Positions 1 through 63,972 of a DNA stretch of 64,000 bases are shown one piece after another (positions within the stretch are counted from its first letter, which is position 1; every line of letters starts with the position of its first letter). The stretch lies in the IMG/VR virus record IMGVR_UViG_2778261087_000003; one strand, 5' to 3'. Made by a program: the position numbers and the translations under genes. A model generated the notes under the pieces. It had not been told where the DNA came from. It did not search any database and saw only the letters and a list, made by a program, of their open reading frames with translations. The stretch comes from a virus (taxonomy: Duplodnaviria; Heunggongvirae; Uroviricota; Caudoviricetes).

Positions 1-1
1 G

Positions 2-184
2 CATAACGTTGAGGTGCGCAGGGAAGGGGGAAGTAAAGCTCTGCGCATGTACCGCCCGGACGGGAAATGGCGGACGGTCGTCGATTTCAAAACTAACAGC
101 GTTCCCCAGGGCGTCCGTGACCGGGCATTCGAGGAATGGGAGCAGATCATCATAGATAACGCATTGCTCCTGAATGCTGATTAA
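2..184 (+). CDS. 3' end of an ORF that continues past the window start (C-terminal ~60 aa); by position possibly the end of a res-like restriction subunit
   Basis: Frame open from window edge to TAA at 182-184; about 50% GC unlike the adjacent AT-rich gene; convergent with the SIR2-like gene. Confidence 0.3.
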   Translation, partial: HNVEVRREGGSKALRMYRPDGKWRTVVDFKTNSVPQGVRDRAFEEWEQIIIDNALLLNAD

Positions 185-186
185 GA

Positions 187-217
187 ACTCTCCGGCCTAG
201 GGAGATTAGGCCGGAGA
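187..217. terminator. GC-rich inverted repeat (ctctccggcc / ggccggagat) between two convergent genes
   Basis: Perfect 9-bp stem seen in sequence; no clean T-run on either side. Confidence 0.35.
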
Positions 218-225
218 TAAATATA

Positions 226-1530
226 CTATATAAACTTAGATATAATATCGTGAATCTGTTGTAGCGGGATTTCTTCCATCTTACTCTTAATAAGAGAGCG
301 GTTAGATGCTGTCAGTGAAGGCCATTTTGTTTTCCAGGCTAGATATGCTCGCCATGAGTAGCCTGTTTCGTAAGGTTTATTCATATAAGTCATTGAGTGT
401 TCAACCGCATGTATGTATTTTTTCTCAAAGTTGGTTCCTTTTACTTCAAATAAACTACCGAAATAAATAAGCCATTTTGCCAGGTGTTCATACTGCTCCC
501 ATGCGCCAGACTCTTTAGTAAGATCTATTTTTTTATCTATTATATCACAAAAAACATTTAATACCTTTTCATCATTCCAGCTATATCCAGATGATGAAAT
601 GGAGGAAATGATATGATAAAAAGAATCCTCTAACTTCAAGAACTCTATTTTATACTCTCTTCCGTTTTTTATTACCGATTTGATTGAGTGCCTCAATTTG
701 TCTTTTATTTTTTTTGCTTCTGGAATTTTCTTGTTAAGTTTTCTAAAGAAATCAGACACCTCTGTTTTATCTATAACCCTAATCCCAAAGCAGGAAAAAT
801 AGTAATCTTTAATAGGTTGCAATAGTTTCCCTCGGGAAATAAGGAAAATATTGGAGGACATTACGTTGTCCCGTGAAAATACCTTATATTCATTTATAAT
901 CGCCTTGAGGTTCGCGTCACTTAGAGAATAGCCAAGAATAACAATAGTGTTTTCATGTAGAACTGTGCTTAGTTTATTTGAAAAGTAAGAATTACCATTT
1001 ATAAATCTGAAATAATCCTCGCTAGTAACAACCATATCTGATGGGGAGTCTATAGAGCCGTGAACATGGTAGACTTTAACCTCACAATTATATTTTGGAA
1101 TTGGCAGGCCGGGGGTGATTGTACACGTTCGATTCTCTCCAGCCAGTTTTTCTGCTAACTTGTCATAATTTGTCGTAATTACTTTAAATGTGTTTTCTTT
1201 GAAAAAGTCTTGAATATATTCAATTGATGGATCAAGTTCGATTGAGGCTATGATTTTCTCAATCTCCTGGTAAATATTTTTCCCCGAAAGTATAAATTTT
1301 AGTGCAATAACCTGAGCTGCCTCTTCAAGGCTAAGGTCTTTTGCTTTTCCATCAGGAAATAATTCCTCTTTGAGTGAGTCACCATCCTTCAATAAACCGC
1401 ACAGTTGCTCCAATAAAGATTGCCAACTTGGGGCTTTATCATCAGAAACAGCCTTTGAAAATCCAGTGCCTGTAAGAAAGCACAGCCTATGTGTAGCTGC
1501 TGCATAGGCAATTTCTATATACTCGCTCAT
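226..1530 (-). CDS. SIR2-like (sirtuin-fold, putative NAD-hydrolase) protein, 434 aa; candidate single-gene defence effector
   Basis: Motifs FLTGTGFS, TTNYD and HVHGS typical of defence-associated SIR2 domains; GGAG RBS 7 nt upstream of ATG; sampled lines about 30-37% GC versus about 50% in flanks. Confidence 0.6.
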   Translation of the reverse strand: MSEYIEIAYAAATHRLCFLTGTGFSKAVSDDKAPSWQSLLEQLCGLLKDGDSLKEELFPDGKAKDLSLEEAAQVIALKFILSGKNIYQEIEKIIASIELDPSIEYIQDFFKENTFKVITTNYDKLAEKLAGENRTCTITPGLPIPKYNCEVKVYHVHGSIDSPSDMVVTSEDYFRFINGNSYFSNKLSTVLHENTIVILGYSLSDANLKAIINEYKVFSRDNVMSSNIFLISRGKLLQPIKDYYFSCFGIRVIDKTEVSDFFRKLNKKIPEAKKIKDKLRHSIKSVIKNGREYKIEFLKLEDSFYHIISSISSSGYSWNDEKVLNVFCDIIDKKIDLTKESGAWEQYEHLAKWLIYFGSLFEVKGTNFEKKYIHAVEHSMTYMNKPYETGYSWRAYLAWKTKWPSLTASNRSLIKSKMEEIPLQQIHDIISKFI

Positions 1531-1586
1531 TACTTACTCCATTTACTTATAGTTCTACGGAGAAGTATACCCTAATGCATTGACGT

Positions 1587-2228
1587 TTATAGATAATTTC
1601 CTTTTCCTGTTAATACTCCCTTAGGCACCTGTTTTTGTGCCAGCGTTTGGGTTCCGCGAATTATGTTAATCAGAGGGCTTAGTAACGATGGTTCCTGGCG
1701 TGCCTCAACTTCTCCAGCCATTGCCCTGATGTAGTCTGCGCTGGCAACGTTGTTGTATTCCGTCGCAAAGCAACATAGTAACGTCAGAACATGCTCTGTC
1801 GTTATTTCGCTCCAGTTGATGTTGAAAAATTCATCGCCTTTTTTGTCGTGTTCGGAATCGAAGATGCTTTGGTGGAGGATGTATTTGCCGGATTCTTTGC
1901 GCGGTAACTTGATCGCTTTCTGGCGTTCCAGCTCCTTGTAAATCTGCATTGCCTCAATTAGTACCGGCCTGCCGTTCATGAAGGGATCGCGCAACCTTAC
2001 ACGCTGGCCAACTCGTCCAGTAATAAAGCTGTTTTCCTCTTCCACCAGCACGATAAAACCCTTTTCCTCTTTTTCTCGCAATTCGCGCAGCAGCTGGAGT
2101 TCCATATCGCGGCGGCGTTCAGGGTAGCTGGTCCGCTCAGCCATTATCAGCTCGTTATTGATCCATGCAGCAGTCATTGACGCCGGTTTGCCGACGCTCA
2201 TCGAAACAACGCATATTTTCTTATCCAT
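1587..2228 (-). CDS. Hypothetical protein at the position of P1 mat (particle maturation); internal ATG with GGGGG RBS chosen over longer track ORF 1587..2339
   Basis: ORF between ref and the SIR2-like gene; SD tagggggcgct upstream of ATG at 2228; no recognisable domain. Confidence 0.4.
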   Translation of the reverse strand: MDKKICVVSMSVGKPASMTAAWINNELIMAERTSYPERRRDMELQLLRELREKEEKGFIVLVEEENSFITGRVGQRVRLRDPFMNGRPVLIEAMQIYKELERQKAIKLPRKESGKYILHQSIFDSEHDKKGDEFFNINWSEITTEHVLTLLCCFATEYNNVASADYIRAMAGEVEARQEPSLLSPLINIIRGTQTLAQKQVPKGVLTGKGNYL

Positions 2229-2357
2229 AGCGCCCCCTACAAAAAAGAAAAGCCACCAGCGGCGGCTTAGCAATACAACTGAAGGTAGCGCCCGGTACTC
2301 AGACTGTGCCGTCCATGGAATATTTGAAAAGGGATCCATCCGTACCGGGCGTGTGAT

Positions 2358-2388
2358 GATTCTGACTGAAGTAACTTGTCAGTTGTCA
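2358..2388 (-). promoter_or_regulatory. Late-promoter-like motif (ACAAGTTACT-N5-CAGAAT on minus strand) upstream of the mat-like gene
   Basis: Matches a motif recurring at 27728, 48308 and 59393 upstream of late-looking operons. Confidence 0.35.
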
Positions 2389-2417
2389 ATCATTTATCAT
2401 TAAAAATAATATATTTA

Positions 2418-2978
2418 TTAGTGCATGATGTTTGCCATCTCATAGGCGTCAGCCAGCAACTCCATCTCTGACTTGTTCAGCAAGGTGAATTCTTTCTTGC
2501 CTCCAACCACACCATCGGCATGGACAGGGACCAGCCAGGGGTATTTTTCTCTTACTTCAGCCGGTGCTGCATGCTGGTGGTGCCATCTACAAAGGGGCAA
2601 TTGCTTTTTGTGACAACCCGGCGCGGTACGACCGGAGATATGGTGCAGAGATACCTCTTCAGATATTACTCCATGCATATAGCAGGCAATGCAGGGGAGA
2701 GCGCCAAGAGCATTGGCGATGCTCCGTTCCTCCGCTGTCGGTGTTCGCCCCTTCAAGCCACGAGATTTTATCTTTACCGCACTTTTCCGCGTTTTGCTGG
2801 CTGGTGGGCGCTCTTTCTGTTTAGCGATACGGCGGTCGATAGAATCCCGCATTTTCTGATATTGCGATTCTCGCCAGGCGGGGTCAGCCAACTTTTCCCG
2901 TTGCCGAGCGATAGCTCGTTCTCTGGCTGCCTTCTGCCACTTGCGGCACTGTTCAATTTTTTGTTCGTTTGTTTTCAT
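2418..2978 (-). CDS. ref: Ref, recombination enhancement function (HNH-type endonuclease), 186 aa
   Basis: 186 aa, Cys/His-rich HNH-like C-terminal half (CxxC ... HH); position next to cre as in P1. Confidence 0.8.
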   Translation of the reverse strand: MKTNEQKIEQCRKWQKAARERAIARQREKLADPAWRESQYQKMRDSIDRRIAKQKERPPASKTRKSAVKIKSRGLKGRTPTAEERSIANALGALPCIACYMHGVISEEVSLHHISGRTAPGCHKKQLPLCRWHHQHAAPAEVREKYPWLVPVHADGVVGGKKEFTLLNKSEMELLADAYEMANIMH

Positions 2979-2981
2979 ATG

Positions 2982-3012
2982 GCAAAAAAAAAGGCGGCCT
3001 AATGGCCGCCAA
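2982..3012 (-). terminator. Rho-independent terminator-like hairpin just upstream of ref
   Basis: ggcggcc-atta-ggccgcc stem followed by a 9-nt T-run on the minus strand. Confidence 0.5.
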
Positions 3013-3078
3013 TGATGTCAAGGAGTGAAGTAATGGCAACGTCTTCGTAGTTGACAAAAACTGCGGCTCAATTATAGC

Positions 3079-3095
3079 AATCAATTAGAGCAATG
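3079..3095. promoter_or_regulatory. C1 operator-like site upstream of ref
   Basis: ATTAGAGCAAT core of the C1 operator consensus; 5' half degenerate. Confidence 0.45.
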
Positions 3096-3225
3096 ATAGA
3101 TGTTTTGTTAATCGCGAATCACATTTTTTCACTTCAGTACCTGTGTGCTATACTCCTTCTTGATTGATTGGATGCGGAATACAAACCCGCTCTTTTGTGC
3201 AGCCTGGCTCCTTGCCAGGCTTTTT

Positions 3226-3537
3226 TTATTTCATCATGGACGCTGTTAACGCTTTGGATCTTGCTGAACTGATTGAAAGGGCATTGTTTACCTTACCCAG
3301 GAGTTCGCCAAATTCCGCCATCACTCTATTAAGCCCGCGCCGCGCTTCCTCCTCCGTTGCATTCATCACAAAATGTTCAGCACTCCGCATGCTTTTAACG
3401 GGGAACGCAACAGATATCGAGTCGATATCTGGCATCCTATCGCTCAATTTTACGGTGACAATGACAGATGGTGACTGAATTTGAGAGCTTACAGACAGCA
3501 CCACATATTTTCCGTCTATTTTGAAATCCTTCCGCAT
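3226..3537 (-). CDS. Hypothetical 103-aa protein between cre and ref (position of P1 cra)
   Basis: ORF co-oriented with and downstream of cre; no domain recognised. Confidence 0.4.
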   Translation of the reverse strand: MRKDFKIDGKYVVLSVSSQIQSPSVIVTVKLSDRMPDIDSISVAFPVKSMRSAEHFVMNATEEEARRGLNRVMAEFGELLGKVNNALSISSARSKALTASMMK

Positions 3538-3587
3538 GTGTCACCATAAACATCAAATAATTAGAGCAATCAAGCGCAAATTGACGG

Positions 3588-4619
3588 CTAATCGCCATCT
3601 TCCAGCAGGCGCACCATTGCCCCCGTTTCACTATCCAGGTTACGAATGTAGTTCATGACAATATTTACGTTGGTCCAGCCACCAGCTTGCATGATCTCCG
3701 GTATTGAAACTCCGGCGCGGGCCATATCTCGCGCGGCACCGACACGGGCACTATGTCCAGACCAGGCCAGGTATCGCTGACCAGAGTCATCTTTTGCCCC
3801 GTAAATCAATCGGTGAGTTGCTTCAAAAATCCCTTCCAGGGCGCGAGTTGATAGCTGGCTGGTGGATGATGGCGCGGCAACACCATTTTTTCTGACGCGG
3901 CAAAACAGGTAGTTATTCGGATCATCAGCTACACCAGAGACAGAAATCCATCGCTCAACCAGTTTAGTTACCCCCAGGCTAAGTGCCTTCTCTACACCAG
4001 CGGTGCTAACCAGCGTTTTCGTTCTGCCAATATGGATTAACATCCTCCCACCGTCAGTACGTGAGATATCTTTAACCCTGATCCTGGAAATTTCGGCTAT
4101 ACGTAACAGGGTGTTATAAGCAATCCCCAGAAATGCCAGATTACGTATATCCTGGCAGCGATCGCTATTTTCCATGAGTGAACGAACCTGGTCGAAATCA
4201 GTGCGTTCGAACGCCAGCGCCTGTTTTGCACGCTCACCGGCATCAACGTTTTCTTTTCGGATCCGTCGCATGACCAGTGAAACAGCATTGCTGTCACTTG
4301 GTCGTGGCAGACCGGACCGACGATGAAGCATATTTAGCTGGCCCAAATGTTGCTGGATAGTTTTTACTGCCAGACCGCGCGCCTGAAGATATAGAAGATA
4401 ATCGCGAACATCTTCAGGTTCTGCGGGAAACCATTTCCGGTTATTCAACTTGCACCATGCCGCCCACGACCGGCAAACGGACAGAAGCATTTTCCAGGTA
4501 TGCTCAGAAAACGCCTGGCGATCCCTGAACATGTCCATCAGGTTCTTGCGAACCTCATCACTCGTTGCATCGACCGGTAATGCAGGCAAATTTTGGTGTA
4601 CGGTCAGTAAATTGGACAT
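3588..4619 (-). CDS. cre: Cre tyrosine site-specific recombinase, 343 aa
   Basis: Translation MSNLLTVHQNLPALPVDATSDEVRKNLMDMFRDRQAFSEHTWKMLLSVCRSWAAWCKLNNRKWFPAEPEDVRDYLLYLQARGLAVKTIQQHLGQLNMLHRRSGLPRPSDSNAVSLVMRRIRKENVDAGERAKQALAFERTDFDQVRSLMENSDRCQDIRNLAFLGIAYNTLLRIAEISRIRVKDISRTDGGRMLIHIGRTKTLVSTAGVEKALSLGVTKLVERWISVSGVADDPNNYLFCRVRKNGVAAPSSTSQLSTRALEGIFEATHRLIYGAKDDSGQRYLAWSGHSARVGAARDMARAGVSIPEIMQAGGWTNVNIVMNYIRNLDSETGAMVRLLEDGD is recognised as P1 Cre; loxP lies 419 bp upstream. Confidence 0.97.
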   Translation of the reverse strand: MSNLLTVHQNLPALPVDATSDEVRKNLMDMFRDRQAFSEHTWKMLLSVCRSWAAWCKLNNRKWFPAEPEDVRDYLLYLQARGLAVKTIQQHLGQLNMLHRRSGLPRPSDSNAVSLVMRRIRKENVDAGERAKQALAFERTDFDQVRSLMENSDRCQDIRNLAFLGIAYNTLLRIAEISRIRVKDISRTDGGRMLIHIGRTKTLVSTAGVEKALSLGVTKLVERWISVSGVADDPNNYLFCRVRKNGVAAPSSTSQLSTRALEGIFEATHRLIYGAKDDSGQRYLAWSGHSARVGAARDMARAGVSIPEIMQAGGWTNVNIVMNYIRNLDSETGAMVRLLEDGD

Positions 4620-4945
4620 TTAACACTCAGATAATGGTTTTAAGTAAAGTGTACAGGATCGGCTCTGCCTTTACCTGTTTATGGTTCTCGTCATAGAAAC
4701 GCCAGCGACCGCGCGTGCGTTCTATTTTCTCTTCACCGCGAGATAATGACAGTTGGTAACTATCACGCTCAAACCCTTTTGCCCGCCAGTAACCACGGTT
4801 TTTCTCAAGCTCAAGATGAGTGGACACTTTAGCAGCTGAATATCCCATTTTTCACCTCTGATTGATTGGTGGTGCTAAGTGCGCTACGCGAAATCTGGAG
4901 CACTAACACTGCCAACATTTCGCAGATTTTACGTAGCGCAACCTT

Positions 4946-5019
4946 GATCAAATGATCAAGTGATCACTATTTGACCTGATAAGGTATTGAACTGTATGGA
5001 TTTACAGGTAAATTGATCA
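4946..5019. promoter_or_regulatory. Cluster of GATC (Dam) sites in the cre upstream region
   Basis: gatcaaatgatcaagtgatcac with three GATC in 20 bp plus one at 5016; P1 cre promoters are reported to be Dam-sensitive. Confidence 0.45.
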
Positions 5020-5037
5020 TGTTCAATAACCCTTAAG

Positions 5038-5071
5038 ATAACTTCGTATAATGTATGCTATACGAAGTTAT
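5038..5071. other. loxP site (13-bp inverted repeats flanking the 8-bp spacer)
   Basis: Exact ATAACTTCGTATAATGTATGCTATACGAAGTTAT. Confidence 0.97.
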
Positions 5072-57559: not shown

Positions 57560-57860
57560 TCACAATCAGGTTTAACAACCTGCTACCCGCTGCTAAACAG
57601 GTGGCAGGACGTGACGGGGTTAGCAGACTGGCGATTGTGAAACCAGCAGGCCGAAGCCTCCCCATCACGCCCCACCATAATTTGGGCGTAACGCGGTTTT
57701 ACGGACACAAAAATACCGCAATATCGGATATCTGCGGCTGTCCGCACAATCATTCAGGCTGCTAAACCCGGTCGCAGAATTTGCTACGACGGCGGAACTA
57801 TAAGCCTGAACGATTAAAAGGTCAATATGATGCGAAAAGATAGCATTCGTGACTTAAAAA
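57560..57860 (-). ncRNA. c4: immI leader expected to contain the c4 antisense RNA (boundaries not resolved)
   Basis: ORF-free 300-bp leader between the operator at 57864 and icd. Confidence 0.3.
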
Positions 57861-57863
57861 TAC

Positions 57864-57880
57864 AAATTTATTAGAGCATT
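57864..57880. promoter_or_regulatory. C1 operator (Op51-type) at the head of c4-icd-ant
   Basis: AAATTTATTAGAGCAtt, 15 of 17 match. Confidence 0.55.
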
Positions 57881-57976
57881 ATCTGCTTAATAAATACACA
57901 ATTGGATCTAATAACCTCTTTTTTTTAAAGGCGAAAATATGTACCCTAAATGGGTTATAAGGCAGGTGAGGTTATA

Positions 57977-58108
57977 ATGAGAAAACTATTACTATCGTTA
58001 TTATTTATGGCTGGGACTGTTAATGCAGCATCAAGCGTAAAGGAGATTTGTACCGATTATACGAAATACCTTTGGCAAGTTTACGCCTTTGCGATCAATG
58101 ACTATTAA
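57977..58108 (+). CDS. Small secreted peptide, 43 aa, first gene of AT-rich island
   Basis: AGGTGAGG RBS; signal-peptide-like MRKLLLSLLFMAGTVNA. Confidence 0.4.
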   Translation: MRKLLLSLLFMAGTVNAASSVKEICTDYTKYLWQVYAFAINDY

Positions 58109-58129
58109 TCCATGCGTAGGAGTGGATTT

Positions 58130-58447
58130 ATGCTGATTCGTTTGTTTTTAGTGCTTTCCTTTTTAACATTTAATGTTTTTGCTGATGAAGTTGACTTTTC
58201 GAAGGTAGATTGTAATTCAGTGGAAACAAGAAAAGCTCTTATTGAAGAATATAACGAAATATTATCGTCATATGGAATAACAGTGGTTGATTCTTATAAT
58301 CAAAAAACTATTCAGAAAGGAATAAATAAACTGGTCTGTTATGGGGTTTACCAATATTCAGATGGCTCTTCGGAGTATGTTATTTATAAAGCATACCCAA
58401 ATAGTCTTGGTGAATTAATTAGTGAGTTTAAACCGATTAATGAGTGA
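58130..58447 (+). CDS. Secreted small protein, 105 aa
   Basis: AGGAG RBS; signal peptide MLIRLFLVLSFLTFNVFA; about 30% GC. Confidence 0.5.
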   Translation: MLIRLFLVLSFLTFNVFADEVDFSKVDCNSVETRKALIEEYNEILSSYGITVVDSYNQKTIQKGINKLVCYGVYQYSDGSSEYVIYKAYPNSLGELISEFKPINE

Positions 58448-58454
58448 ATGGAAA

Positions 58455-59234
58455 ATGAAATTATTTAATGTAATAACATTTTGTTGTGCTGTTTTTGCTG
58501 GAAGCGCGATAGCTGATAATAAATTGCCAGATTGGCTTTCTACCTCAAAGAAAGATTATGATTTAGTAAGGGCATTCTATTTGTCTGGATTTGCTTCGAA
58601 AGCAATGAACAATCAATTTGGTTATCATTTGCCATCTGAGTTGGTTAATGATTTTAAAGATAATGAATTTGCTGCTCAGGAAAAATGGAACACAATTCCA
58701 ATTGTGTATGGTGAAATAAAATCCATAAGAATGGTGAATAATAAACCAATTGTAGAGTTATTTACTCCAGGGGAAAATGCAACGCCACTAAATTATATCA
58801 AATTGAAAATATTGGATTCAAAGCAAGACTCTCTGTTAAAACTAAAAAAAGGGGATGATATATATGCAGTGTGCTCAGGTGCTAATTTTAGCTTAGTGCC
58901 AATTCTGAGCAACTGCACTCCAGCAACAGACGTCATTGATGCTGCACTCTCTTTTTCTGGTGAATATATGTTCCCTGCTTTTGATTCTTTTTCACCTACT
59001 AAGCAAAACGTCAAATATATATTCACAAATCAAGATCCTGTTCAGATGATGAATTTTATAGGGTACCTATCCTTAGTCGATACAACGAAGGATAAGAAAA
59101 AAATGGATATGGTTCGTAAGTGTACGCCTTGGAAGCCGGAATGTTCACAACAATTCGTTGATGTAATGGAAGGATTTGATAGCATCATGTATAAATATGA
59201 GGGAGAATTTAAAAATTACATAGAATTAAAATAG
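58455..59234 (+). CDS. Secreted 259-aa protein; candidate Sim-like superinfection-exclusion protein
   Basis: Signal peptide MKLFNVITFCCAVFAGSAIA; island adjacent to immI where P1 sim maps; identification by position only. Confidence 0.4.
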   Translation: MKLFNVITFCCAVFAGSAIADNKLPDWLSTSKKDYDLVRAFYLSGFASKAMNNQFGYHLPSELVNDFKDNEFAAQEKWNTIPIVYGEIKSIRMVNNKPIVELFTPGENATPLNYIKLKILDSKQDSLLKLKKGDDIYAVCSGANFSLVPILSNCTPATDVIDAALSFSGEYMFPAFDSFSPTKQNVKYIFTNQDPVQMMNFIGYLSLVDTTKDKKKMDMVRKCTPWKPECSQQFVDVMEGFDSIMYKYEGEFKNYIELK

Positions 59235-59271
59235 TATTTGAAAGGATAGTCAATTTAAGTTTTAAAAAAAA

Positions 59272-59300
59272 ACGCCCATTAAAGGGCGTTTTATTGTTTT
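59272..59300 (+). terminator. Rho-independent terminator after the AT-rich island
   Basis: acgccc-atta-aagggcgt hairpin followed by tttattgtttt. Confidence 0.6.
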
Positions 59301-59392
59301 ACTCAAAACAACCTGATTATGTGATAACCATATCATATCCCTCATTCCACCTACACTGATTACCCCCCCAGACAACAATATTCCTACTCAAT

Positions 59393-59415
59393 GAACAAAT
59401 GACTACTCGTAGAAT
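59393..59415 (+). promoter_or_regulatory. Late-promoter-like motif (GAACAAATGACT-N5-TAGAAT)
   Basis: Same motif as 27728 and 48308. Confidence 0.4.
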
Positions 59416-59422
59416 CGGTTAA

Positions 59423-60013
<591 letters not shown>

Positions 60014-61612: not shown

Positions 61613-61882
61613 ATGGAAAGAAAAAACGCCAACATTGACGATGTTATAAGGACAGTTGAAACCGCCAGCGCAAAAGAGCTGGAAGAGCTTGCAGGTATCC
61701 GGGAAGCTGTTGAAGATTTGAAAGGGGGACGCGTTGCAACTGTTGATCCTGTCTCTCGCAGTGTGTCGGCATTAAATCGCACAATCGAAAATTCCCGGCC
61801 AGACTTTGTGGCCAATGCGCCATCAGTGGACCCTATTGTTGACGCAATGAAACGGCTTAATTTAGGGGACGTTTCTCGTTGA
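61613..61882 (+). CDS. Hypothetical small helical protein, 89 aa
   Basis: ORF upstream of cin. Confidence 0.35.
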   Translation: MERKNANIDDVIRTVETASAKELEELAGIREAVEDLKGGRVATVDPVSRSVSALNRTIENSRPDFVANAPSVDPIVDAMKRLNLGDVSR

Positions 61883-61957: not shown

Positions 61958-62530
61958 TTACAACTCAGCTTGAGTTTGAAGTTCCTCTACAGGGTGATAA
62001 CGATAAATCGTCGATATACCGATATCGTAAATAATTGCCAACTGTTTTCTGCTATAGCCATTTTTGATCAGCCTTGCTATTTGTTCATGTTGCTCTTTTG
62101 TCAGTTTCGGACGACGTCCACCAATACGCCCCTGTGCACGTGCTGCTTCAAGTCCGGCCAGTGTTCGTTCAACTATTAATTCACGCTCCATTTCCGCTAA
62201 AGCCCCCATGACGTGAAAAAAGAAACGTCCCATGGGTGTTGACGTATCAATGCTGTCTGTAAGACTACGGAAGTTAACCCCTTTTTCCCGCAGTTCCTCA
62301 ATAAGAGTGATGAGGTGTTTCATGCTTCTGCCCAGCCTGTCCAGCTTCCAGACAACGAGCGTATCTCCTTCTGATAACGTTCTGAGCAGCTTTTTCAATC
62401 CTGGTCTGGCTGACTTTGTTCCGCTGATTTTATCCTCAAAAATCAGTTCACATCCTGCGCAGTTCAGTGCGTTTCGTTGTAAATCTGTATTCTGGTCATT
62501 TGTTGACACACGAATGTAGCCAATTTGCAT
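61958..62530 (-). CDS. cin: Cin, serine DNA invertase of the C segment, 190 aa
   Basis: MQIGYIRVSTNDQNTDLQ ... resolvase/invertase N-terminus and C-terminal HTH; AGAGGA RBS at the internal start. Confidence 0.9.
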   Translation of the reverse strand: MQIGYIRVSTNDQNTDLQRNALNCAGCELIFEDKISGTKSARPGLKKLLRTLSEGDTLVVWKLDRLGRSMKHLITLIEELREKGVNFRSLTDSIDTSTPMGRFFFHVMGALAEMERELIVERTLAGLEAARAQGRIGGRRPKLTKEQHEQIARLIKNGYSRKQLAIIYDIGISTIYRYHPVEELQTQAEL

Positions 62531-62577
62531 GAAAAATATCCTCTTTGTTTTGTTAAAAATACATAGCTGGTATAGGT

Positions 62578-62603
62578 GGGAGTTAAGACGAAAACGTTGG
62601 TTT
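62578..62603. other. Probable cix crossover site at the cin-proximal edge of the invertible segment
   Basis: cgaaaacgttggtttgggagaa resembles gix/cix half-sites; boundary inferred. Confidence 0.3.
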
Positions 62604-62955
62604 GGGAGAAGCGGCGAAAAGGGATGTGGGCACAGGAGATAATCAGATACCGGATATGGGAGCATTCGCTTCTGGTTCGGGATGGTTCAGGCTACCAGGT
62701 GGATATATTGTTCAGTTTGGCACTTTTGCAGGAAACACGACCCGCTTTATCAGTGGACACTTCCCTATACCATTCCCTAATCAGCCGATGGTTTCAGTCA
62801 GTGTTATGTCTGATGCCGTTCAGTCAGACCCGTCGATTCCTGCCCCGCAGGTTTTGTCTGTAAATTTTGAACATATCAGTAATTCAGCGTGGCGTGTGGC
62901 AACCAGTGATATCTCACAGCAATACAGATTCAGTTATATTTCGATAGGACGGTAG
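62602..62955 (+). CDS. Sv', alternative variable C-terminal tail-fibre segment (lacks its own 5' constant part in this orientation)
   Basis: Tail-fibre tip-like sequence directly followed by a U'-type gene inside the invertible segment. Confidence 0.6.
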   Translation: MGEAAKRDVGTGDNQIPDMGAFASGSGWFRLPGGYIVQFGTFAGNTTRFISGHFPIPFPNQPMVSVSVMSDAVQSDPSIPAPQVLSVNFEHISNSAWRVATSDISQQYRFSYISIGR

Positions 62956-62957
62956 AA

Positions 62958-63398
62958 ATGCAGAAATATATTTTCAGTGCCGATAAAAATGCGTTTTTCC
63001 CTGTGGAGCTTAAAATCGCTTATCAGGAATCCGGCGAATGGCCCGATGATGGAATCGAAATTGACGACACTGTTGCCGCCGAATTTATGAAGGAAGCACC
63101 AGAAGGAAAATACAGAGGTGTCATCGACGGAATGCCAGCATGGATTGATATTCCACCACCAACACATGAAGAACAGATTGCAGCAGCTGAATTGCAAAAG
63201 CAGCAGTTGATTAATAAGGCCAACGCATACATAAACAGTAAGCAATGGCCTGGTAAAGCAGCTATTGGTCGTCTGAAAGGTGAGGAACTGGCGCAATATA
63301 ATTTGTGGCTGGATTATCTGGACGCACTGGAACTGGTCGATACTTCCGGTGCTCCAGATATTGAATGGCCTACGCCTCCGGCAGTTCAGGCCAGATGA
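62958..63398 (+). CDS. U', tail-fibre assembly protein (alternative copy), 146 aa
   Basis: Tfa-like protein; C-terminus paralogous to the convergent U gene. Confidence 0.7.
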   Translation: MQKYIFSADKNAFFPVELKIAYQESGEWPDDGIEIDDTVAAEFMKEAPEGKYRGVIDGMPAWIDIPPPTHEEQIAAAELQKQQLINKANAYINSKQWPGKAAIGRLKGEELAQYNLWLDYLDALELVDTSGAPDIEWPTPPAVQAR

Positions 63399-63972
63399 CA
63401 TCCGGCGCGGTGCTGGTATCTGTTGCCGTCACCGCGTCAATGTAATCCAGCACGGCGTTTAGTCGGGTGGTTTCTGTTTGCATCAGCTTCCGTCCGGCCT
63501 GTAATTTCAGCTGAATCAGACTAATGGAAGCCATTGCAGCATCAATCAGTGACTGGCGCTGTGCTTCTGCCGCTTCGACTGCGGCGCTATGTTGTGCCTC
63601 AGCATCGGTCACCCATTTCTCACCATCCCATTTATCGTATGGCGTTAACGGGGCGATAGTGGTTGTTTTTTCGGGGTAATCACCCGGAGTTGTGATTTCT
63701 TTGGCGTCTCCCGTTTCGGTGTTATAGATGATTTCACCGCGATGGTCTGGCACATACTCCCATGAGTTTAAATCTGCTGAACGGCAGATTGCATAACCAG
63801 CTTTATGTATACCTGGTGCATCTAAACAAGAACATGCCGGGATACCGACGCCAACAGCAAGATATTCAGTTGATGTGGAAAGATATTCCCGCGTCTTGCT
63901 GTCGTAGTTAAACACGGTCACATCACCCGCTACCGTGGCAATCAGTTCGCTGTTTAATTTTGCCTGTGCCAT
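63370..63972 (-). CDS. U: U, tail-fibre assembly protein, 200 aa
   Basis: Convergent with U'; shares the Tfa-type C-terminus (DVIWPELPEA versus DIEWPTPPA). Confidence 0.7.
   Translation of the reverse strand: MAQAKLNSELIATVAGDVTVFNYDSKTREYLSTSTEYLAVGVGIPACSCLDAPGIHKAGYAICRSADLNSWEYVPDHRGEIIYNTETGDAKEITTPGDYPEKTTTIAPLTPYDKWDGEKWVTDAEAQHSAAVEAAEAQRQSLIDAAMASISLIQLKLQAGRKLMQTETTRLNAVLDYIDAVTATDTSTAPDVIWPELPEA

Follow-up and report, generated by a model that had tools for sequence, protein, structure and literature searches.

Phages T4 (Imm and Sp), P22 (SieA), TP-J34 (Ltp), T5 (Llp) and phi80/N15 (Cor) share with the locus described here the logic of using an envelope protein to stop a later phage, and they do so either after adsorption or at the receptor step. 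Ltp, Llp and Cor have a lipobox, and Imm and SieA have a membrane-spanning segment. The closest described system is Sim of phage P1, which blocks incoming P1-type phage after adsorption but before the phage DNA is established in the cytoplasm: adsorption to Sim+ cells is normal, and transfection bypasses the block. As the Sim phenotype was described with multicopy clones, the contribution of Sim in a single-copy prophage is uncertain. The protein is said, in work by Maillou and Dreiseikelmann dating from 1990, to be made as a precursor that is processed by removing about 20 N-terminal residues.

Sim has been in the literature as a superimmunity or superinfection-exclusion function of P1 since 1982–1990. 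That sim confers superinfection exclusion in P1 is stated in a passage of PMC9177967, and a passage of PMC8546580 credits Sim in P1 to work from 1982 and to Kliem & Dreiseikelmann 1989. In a genome-wide CRISPRi screen, simA, simB and simC were all non-essential for plaque formation (PMC10695390). For Sim, first described more than 35 years ago, we came across neither a published structure nor a published target, and none of the papers searched links the ‘tRNA_anti-like’ family (PF12869), to which we relate SimC below, with superinfection exclusion.

The initial annotation of the window (the whole stretch of 64,000 nucleotides analysed here) had proposed that an AT-rich island next to immI is a sim-like exclusion cassette, lying where sim maps in P1. 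The proposal is borne out by the nucleotide sequence and the flanks: in a megablast search of a phage collection, positions 57700–59500 match phage P1 (AF234172, AF234173, NC_005856 and OP279344) with 98.4% nucleotide identity at 100% coverage, and the record M34382, ‘Bacteriophage P1 sim region proteins’, with 97.7% identity. The differences from P1 amount to 28 nt over 1.8 kb, one of them in the −35 element of the predicted promoter PsimA. The P1 annotation (AF234172) runs in the order Oc4, PsimA, simA, simB, simC, the pmgC promoters, LPsit, pmgC, tub, pmgB and sit, with c4, icd, ant1/2, kilA and repL on the other side of Oc4. The gene order of the window is the same, with Oc4/c4, icd, ant1 and kilA to the left of the island and LPsit, pmgC, tub and pmgB to the right. 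The proposed comparison with P1 sim sequences gives identity at 48 of 52 residues for SimA, 111 of 111 for SimB and 262 of 264 for SimC (AAQ14015; 256 of 259 against ORF 2 of M34382, a record that holds ORF1 and ORF2 of the region).

Judged by its sequence, the island is the simA-simB-simC operon of a P1-type phage-plasmid and not merely a sim-like one. Its third gene corresponds to simC of AF234172 and to ‘sim region ORF 2’ of M34382, and is labelled ‘superimmunity’ in AF234172, where simA and simB are each labelled ‘putative superimmunity accessory function’; only SimC, then, carries the P1 annotation as the superimmunity function. The explanation that we hold with strong confidence is that this is the simABC operon of a P1-type phage-plasmid, with Sim excluding superinfecting phage. 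The exclusion phenotype of the window copy is in this case carried over from the published work on P1. The sim locus is already known, and we have rediscovered a textbook P1 operon; the parts that may be new are the structural annotation of the SimC and SimB proteins and the recognition of simA as a remnant. The wider window is likewise a P1-type phage-plasmid: of the 24 kb compared with P1, 85% aligns at ~98% identity. It differs from P1 itself, outside the shared backbone, in content in places and in having an interrupted sit.

The G+C content of the island (57840–59300) is 32.5% as compared to a window mean of 47.5%, which makes the original figure of about 30% fair, if slightly low, and the GC3 of the island genes is 0.23–0.36 as compared to 0.47–0.52 in ant1, kilA, pmgC, tub and pmgB. 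As first described, the island is bounded by the c4 operator on one side and a terminator on the other. The left edge is formed by the 17-bp C1 repressor operator Oc4 (formerly Op51; 57864–57880, minus strand; AAATTTATTAGAGCATT), which is identical to the annotated P1 operator. On the right, the operon is closed by a bidirectional intrinsic-terminator-like hairpin (59269–59292, both strands) found with a terminator scan: it has nine pairs, five of them G-C, with an A-run before and a T-run after it, and the 50-nt stretch that contains it (59256–59305) gives −14.6 kcal/mol. The island genes lie on the plus strand and c4-icd-ant on the minus strand, confirming the divergent arrangement. Two neighbouring landmarks lie outside the cassette on its left: the c4 antisense RNA of immI (57597–57682, minus strand), which scores 69.6 bits against Rfam RF01695 (gathering score 45) in agreement with the P1 annotation, and the a1/b1 targets on the minus strand left of Oc4, which match Rfam RF03163 above its gathering score. 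On the right, the first feature conserved beyond the cassette is the late promoter LPsit (59397–59415, plus strand; AAATGACTACTCGTAGAAT), whose sequence is the one annotated in P1; pmgC (59447–60013) comes next, and then tub and pmgB.

In their longest forms, the three plus-strand reading frames extend over 57950–58108 (52 aa), 58112–58447 (111 aa) and 58422–59234 (270 aa), and the lengths of 43, 105 and 259 aa originally given correspond to starts at the internal ATGs 57977, 58130 and 58455. Good Shine-Dalgarno sequences precede ATG 57977 (AGGTGAGG) and ATG 58130 (TAGGAG), and ATG 58455 is the start used for ORF 2 in the original sim record M34382. Counted from these starts, the three plus-strand genes are simA (57977–58108; 43 aa), simB (58130–58447; 105 aa) and simC, the sim gene proper (58455–59234; 259 aa). 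The P1 annotation begins each of them earlier, at 57950 (52 aa), 58112 (111 aa) and 58440 (264 aa), respectively. The predicted sigma-70 promoter PsimA (57886–57912, plus strand), transferred from AF234172, is weak, with CTTAAT (TTTAAT in P1) as its −35 and TCTAAT as its −10 element; a consensus promoter scan of the plus strand missed PsimA and turned up no good sigma-70 site ahead of simA.

Signal peptides were judged by sequence rules, namely the n-h-c layout, Kyte-Doolittle means, the residues at −3 and −1 and the lipobox pattern, and the signal-peptide-like N-terminus ascribed to each of the three proteins satisfies them. All three N-termini combine a basic start with a hydrophobic core (maximum 10-residue Kyte-Doolittle mean of 2.4–2.6), and small residues are found at −3 and −1. 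The predicted cleavage falls between MRKLLLSLLFMAGTVNA and A in SimA, between MLIRLFLVLSFLTFNVFA and D in SimB and between MKLFNVITFCCAVFAGSAIA and D in SimC, the residues at the sites being, by rule, VNA/A, VFA/D and AIA/D, respectively, which places the cuts behind residues 17, 18 and 20. The mature parts of SimA, SimB and SimC have no further hydrophobic segment (maximum 19-residue mean of 1.25 or less), and none of the three proteins has a lipobox (motif [LVI][ASTVI][GAS]C). These features suggest that Sim is exported to the periplasm of the lysogen via a cleavable signal peptide.

Two classes of exclusion protein were considered for the Sim proteins and rejected: the lipoprotein type (Ltp, Llp, Cor and TraT), on the grounds that there is no lipobox and no Pfam match to those families, and the membrane-anchored Imm/SieA type, on the grounds that the mature Sim parts lack a hydrophobic segment. 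In searches of Pfam, PADLOC, PDB sequences and NCBIfam, neither SimA, SimB nor SimC showed a sequence or family relationship to T4 Imm/Sp, SieA, Ltp, Llp or Cor. A search for a known function of the three proteins returned chance-level matches only from NCBIfam and, from PDB sequences, only matches with E above 0.6. PADLOC-DB v2 yielded no family for any of them at E up to 0.1, and PHROGs lists all three as ‘unknown function’.

The initial description of three secreted proteins holds as far as the reading frames of 43, 105 and 259 aa are concerned, but not for simA as a full protein. In its 43-aa form, SimA consists of a predicted signal peptide and a 26-aa mature part, and it matches only positions 1–41 of the 213-position PHROG 3933 profile. 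In a distant P1-like element (L006, from the E. coli assembly GCA_053108235.1), the first gene of the cassette (4411–4950) is intact and encodes a 179-aa secreted protein, the first ~40 residues of which align with SimA. As the gap between the stop of simA and the start of simB is a mere 21 nt in the window, the rest of a longer simA would have been deleted. Nei-Gojobori estimates put dN of simA about equal to dS, with a dN/dS between roughly 0.4 and more than 1, calculated from very few sites. Going by these comparisons, P1-type simA is probably a truncated 5′ remnant of a gene for a 179-aa secreted protein, and not a real accessory gene.

SimC differs from its P1 counterpart by the substitutions I13V, in the signal peptide, and N215K, near the C-terminus (259-aa numbering), and simC has a dN/dS of 0.2–0.4 (Nei-Gojobori). 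The protein is predicted to comprise a 20-aa signal peptide and a 239-aa mature part with a pI of 5.4; its cysteines C140, C154, C223 and C230 remain unchanged down to 38% identity. Residues 62–154 match Pfam PF12869 ‘tRNA_anti-like’ with E=1e-3 and 19.1 bits, below the gathering score of 23.5. PF12869 is, in turn, matched by four of the seven aligned SimC relatives (best 2e-14), and a profile-profile comparison of the SimC family with three relatives from the SimC searches, two of which are recorded with PF12869, gives 99% probability (E=5e-18) over residues 59–157. SimC falls short of the curated threshold for membership in PF12869, but the profile-profile and fold comparisons support such membership; it is best regarded as belonging to the PF12869 OB-fold class as a divergent member, or as related to that class.

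The predicted structure of SimC is of moderate quality (mean pLDDT 64.6, and below 50 in residues 142–168) and suggests an OB domain at about residues 59–157 followed by a helical C-terminal domain at about residues 160–257. We infer that mature SimC is a soluble two-domain periplasmic protein, with an OB fold of the PF12869/3f1z type and then a helical domain; each domain has one conserved Cys pair, which is probably a disulfide. In contrast to PF12869 proteins such as 3f1z, which is a putative lipoprotein from Klebsiella pneumoniae, SimC is no lipoprotein, and it adds an N-terminal helix and a ~100-aa helical C-terminal domain with a Cys pair of its own. To our knowledge, no function is known for the PF12869 family.

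A word-indexed homologue search for SimC recovered close relatives only. An exhaustive HMMER scan of 1.84 billion representatives produced 15 matches, three of which are full-length or nearly so (at 83% and 39% identity, and one of 225 aa at 28%), the others being fragments or OB-domain-only proteins. With a narrow alignment, SimC loci were found in one GTDB species representative (E. coli) and at 20 IMG/VR loci, all 94–100% identical. The SimC family therefore appears, from these sequence searches, to be small. Its diverged copies occupy the same position in P1-like elements, with pmgC-tub-pmgB-sit downstream of them.

SimB is predicted to have a signal peptide followed by an 87-aa mature acidic protein with two cysteines; it belongs to PHROG 14329, and the dN/dS of its gene is 0–0.14 (Nei-Gojobori). 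Pfam yields only noise for SimB (TcpS and ComA, with E above 0.07). Its predicted structure, a helix and a four-stranded sheet (pLDDT 84, with one of the five models confident), points to a small cystatin/NTF2-like periplasmic protein. A SimB-like gene (59%) and a SimC-like gene (47%) are adjacent at the same locus in L006, and the same side-by-side arrangement is seen in L004 (Logan SRR14689322), which carries the 83% SimC variant. SimB and SimC thus stay together in diverged cassettes, and both are under purifying selection. Since SimB is co-inherited with SimC and is the more strongly conserved of the two, sequence comparison makes it a likely partner of SimC. However, D6-like elements reportedly retain simB but lack simC (PMC6799933), which weakens the case for an obligate SimB-SimC pairing.

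How might such proteins exclude a phage? The scheme we favour is one in which Sim, exported to the periplasm of the lysogen, would stop incoming P1-type phage between adsorption and the establishment of its DNA in the cytoplasm. The most likely mechanism would be stoichiometric binding of SimC to a component of the incoming injection apparatus as this crosses the periplasm, with SimB as its likely partner. Candidate targets are Sit, a tape-measure/transglycosylase protein, and the tip of the tail tube. Both are natural candidates because the genes for the tail tube and for Sit lie in the adjacent operon; an SLT transglycosylase domain accompanies the tape-measure function of Sit (Pfam SLT on homologues in relatives). 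The naming of Sit or the tail tip as the Sim target is pure conjecture, and an OB fold would fit the binding of protein, glycan or nucleic acid equally well. Enzymatic activity of SimC, or masking of a receptor by it, is less likely. In its fully specified form, the proposal is a doubtful one: SimB and SimC would make up a conserved periplasmic module in which Sit or the tail-tube tip is bound by the OB domain of SimC, possibly helped by a cystatin-like SimB as a co-inhibitor. If a block of Sit or of the tail tip by SimB-SimC were true, it would provide the first molecular mechanism for Sim, as well as the first function, blockade of viral entry, for a widespread ‘tRNA_anti-like’ family of secreted OB-fold proteins found in many prophages. 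The OB-fold class of SimC, the co-conservation of SimB and SimC and the limits of the cassette are concrete handles for experiments.

The limits of the cassette follow from comparison with relatives of P1. By blastn, homology to P7 ends at 57878, after Oc4, and resumes at 59395, before LPsit, defining a replaceable low-G+C cassette of 57879–59394. P7, RCS47, SJ46, JL22 and others match only the cassette flanks (16% of the query). At the equivalent position, P7 (L003, AF503408; 1063–2127) carries an unrelated cassette of two genes, both with annotated signal peptides: Upf50.5, a lipoprotein with a sub-threshold TraT-like match to PF05818 (E=7e-5, 23 bits as compared to a cut-off of 31), and Upf50.0, a DUF5384 protein. 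The P7-type cassette resembles simABC in being inserted between Oc4 and LPsit, in its orientation and in encoding secreted products, but the sequences are unrelated, the DUF5384 protein and the weakly TraT-like/glycine-zipper lipoprotein taking the place of SimA, SimB and SimC. That P7 carries different secreted proteins at the same site makes the site a swap point for small secreted or envelope proteins, and envelope or exclusion cargo seems to collect preferentially in the gap between Oc4 and LPsit. The simABC genes have been described as ‘variable region 4’ among the eight regions of P1-like phage-plasmids that are highly variable and low in G+C (PMC9603915), and we infer that the sim cassette is a horizontally exchanged low-G+C module between Oc4 and LPsit.

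The same cassette is present at 99.5–99.9% identity in many E. coli, Shigella and Salmonella plasmids, in which the genes are labelled ‘hypothetical protein’. In PLSDB, the sim query is matched by 293 records, 137 of which hold at least 80% of it. The present assignment helps to annotate many P1-like phage-plasmids, several with resistance genes, in which the sim genes have been left as hypothetical.

Further insertions were observed in the diverged elements. In L006, an IS605-family TnpB/OrfB gene (3108–4238) lies between icd/c4 and the sim-like cassette, a further sign that the intergenic site tolerates insertions. In L004, two extra genes (1921–3109) separate simC from pmgC, encoding a 215-aa protein with a faint match to PTP-like phytase and a YfjT-family protein, and a different, membrane-like protein of 107 aa is encoded upstream of simB.

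One alternative is that the cassette would be generic ‘moron’ cargo, with secreted proteins that mainly serve the host envelope (benefits of this sort include serum, colicin or stress resistance and surface exclusion of other elements) and with the exclusion seen in P1 as a side effect of overexpression. The low G+C content, indicative of foreign origin, fits such cargo, as do a swap hotspot that holds a TraT-like lipoprotein and a DUF5384 protein in P7-type relatives, the dispensability of the sim genes for lytic growth, the description of the Sim phenotype with multicopy clones and the lack of a match to any PADLOC defence model. Yet published genetics assign superinfection exclusion to sim, and the SimC family occurs only in P1-like elements, always at this locus beside injection and tail genes, which a phage-specific target fits better than a general host function does. 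We consider it improbable that the cassette is mainly host-serving cargo.

Another alternative accepts exclusion as the function of SimC but has it act on the incoming DNA, with the OB fold as a periplasmic nucleic-acid-binding domain that captures or stalls it. The names of the families suggest nucleic acids, but they reflect a fold and not an assay; mature SimC is acidic, with a pI that is unusual for a DNA binder. In myoviruses, moreover, the DNA passes within the tail tube, out of contact with the periplasm. We regard capture of DNA as very improbable, and binding of the injection apparatus by SimC remains our preferred mechanism.

That the window copy of sim is inactive or decaying, as a truncated-looking simA with dN about equal to dS and a possibly defective element with sit broken at 61879 might suggest, is scarcely credible, given that simB and simC are intact, identical or nearly identical to the P1 copy and to hundreds of plasmid copies (the latter at 99.5–99.9%) and under purifying selection.

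The sit gene itself is interrupted. Homology to P1 sit stops after codon 89, at 61879/61880, and the reading frame (61613–61882) ends in a stop. Beyond the break lie a serine invertase gene (61958–62665, minus strand) and then two tail-fibre assembly genes (62958–63398, plus strand, and 63370–63972, minus strand). In the relative p95_MLI121, the same invertase module adjoins the lydA holin gene, and no PLSDB plasmid has the sit′/invertase junction in one piece. It looks as if a large inversion or deletion had split the tape-measure gene here, unless the break is a misassembly; a split sit could make the prophage defective.

At the other end of the window, within positions 1–5054, only 1–184 (lxc) and 1593–5054 (mat-ref-c8-cre-lox) match the first 47 kb of P1. 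Nothing in the window matches the P1 stretch from lxc to mat, with res and mod; its place is taken by only ~1.4 kb of sequence without a P1 match (185–1592), a pattern that fits replacement or loss of the known res/mod variable region in this element.
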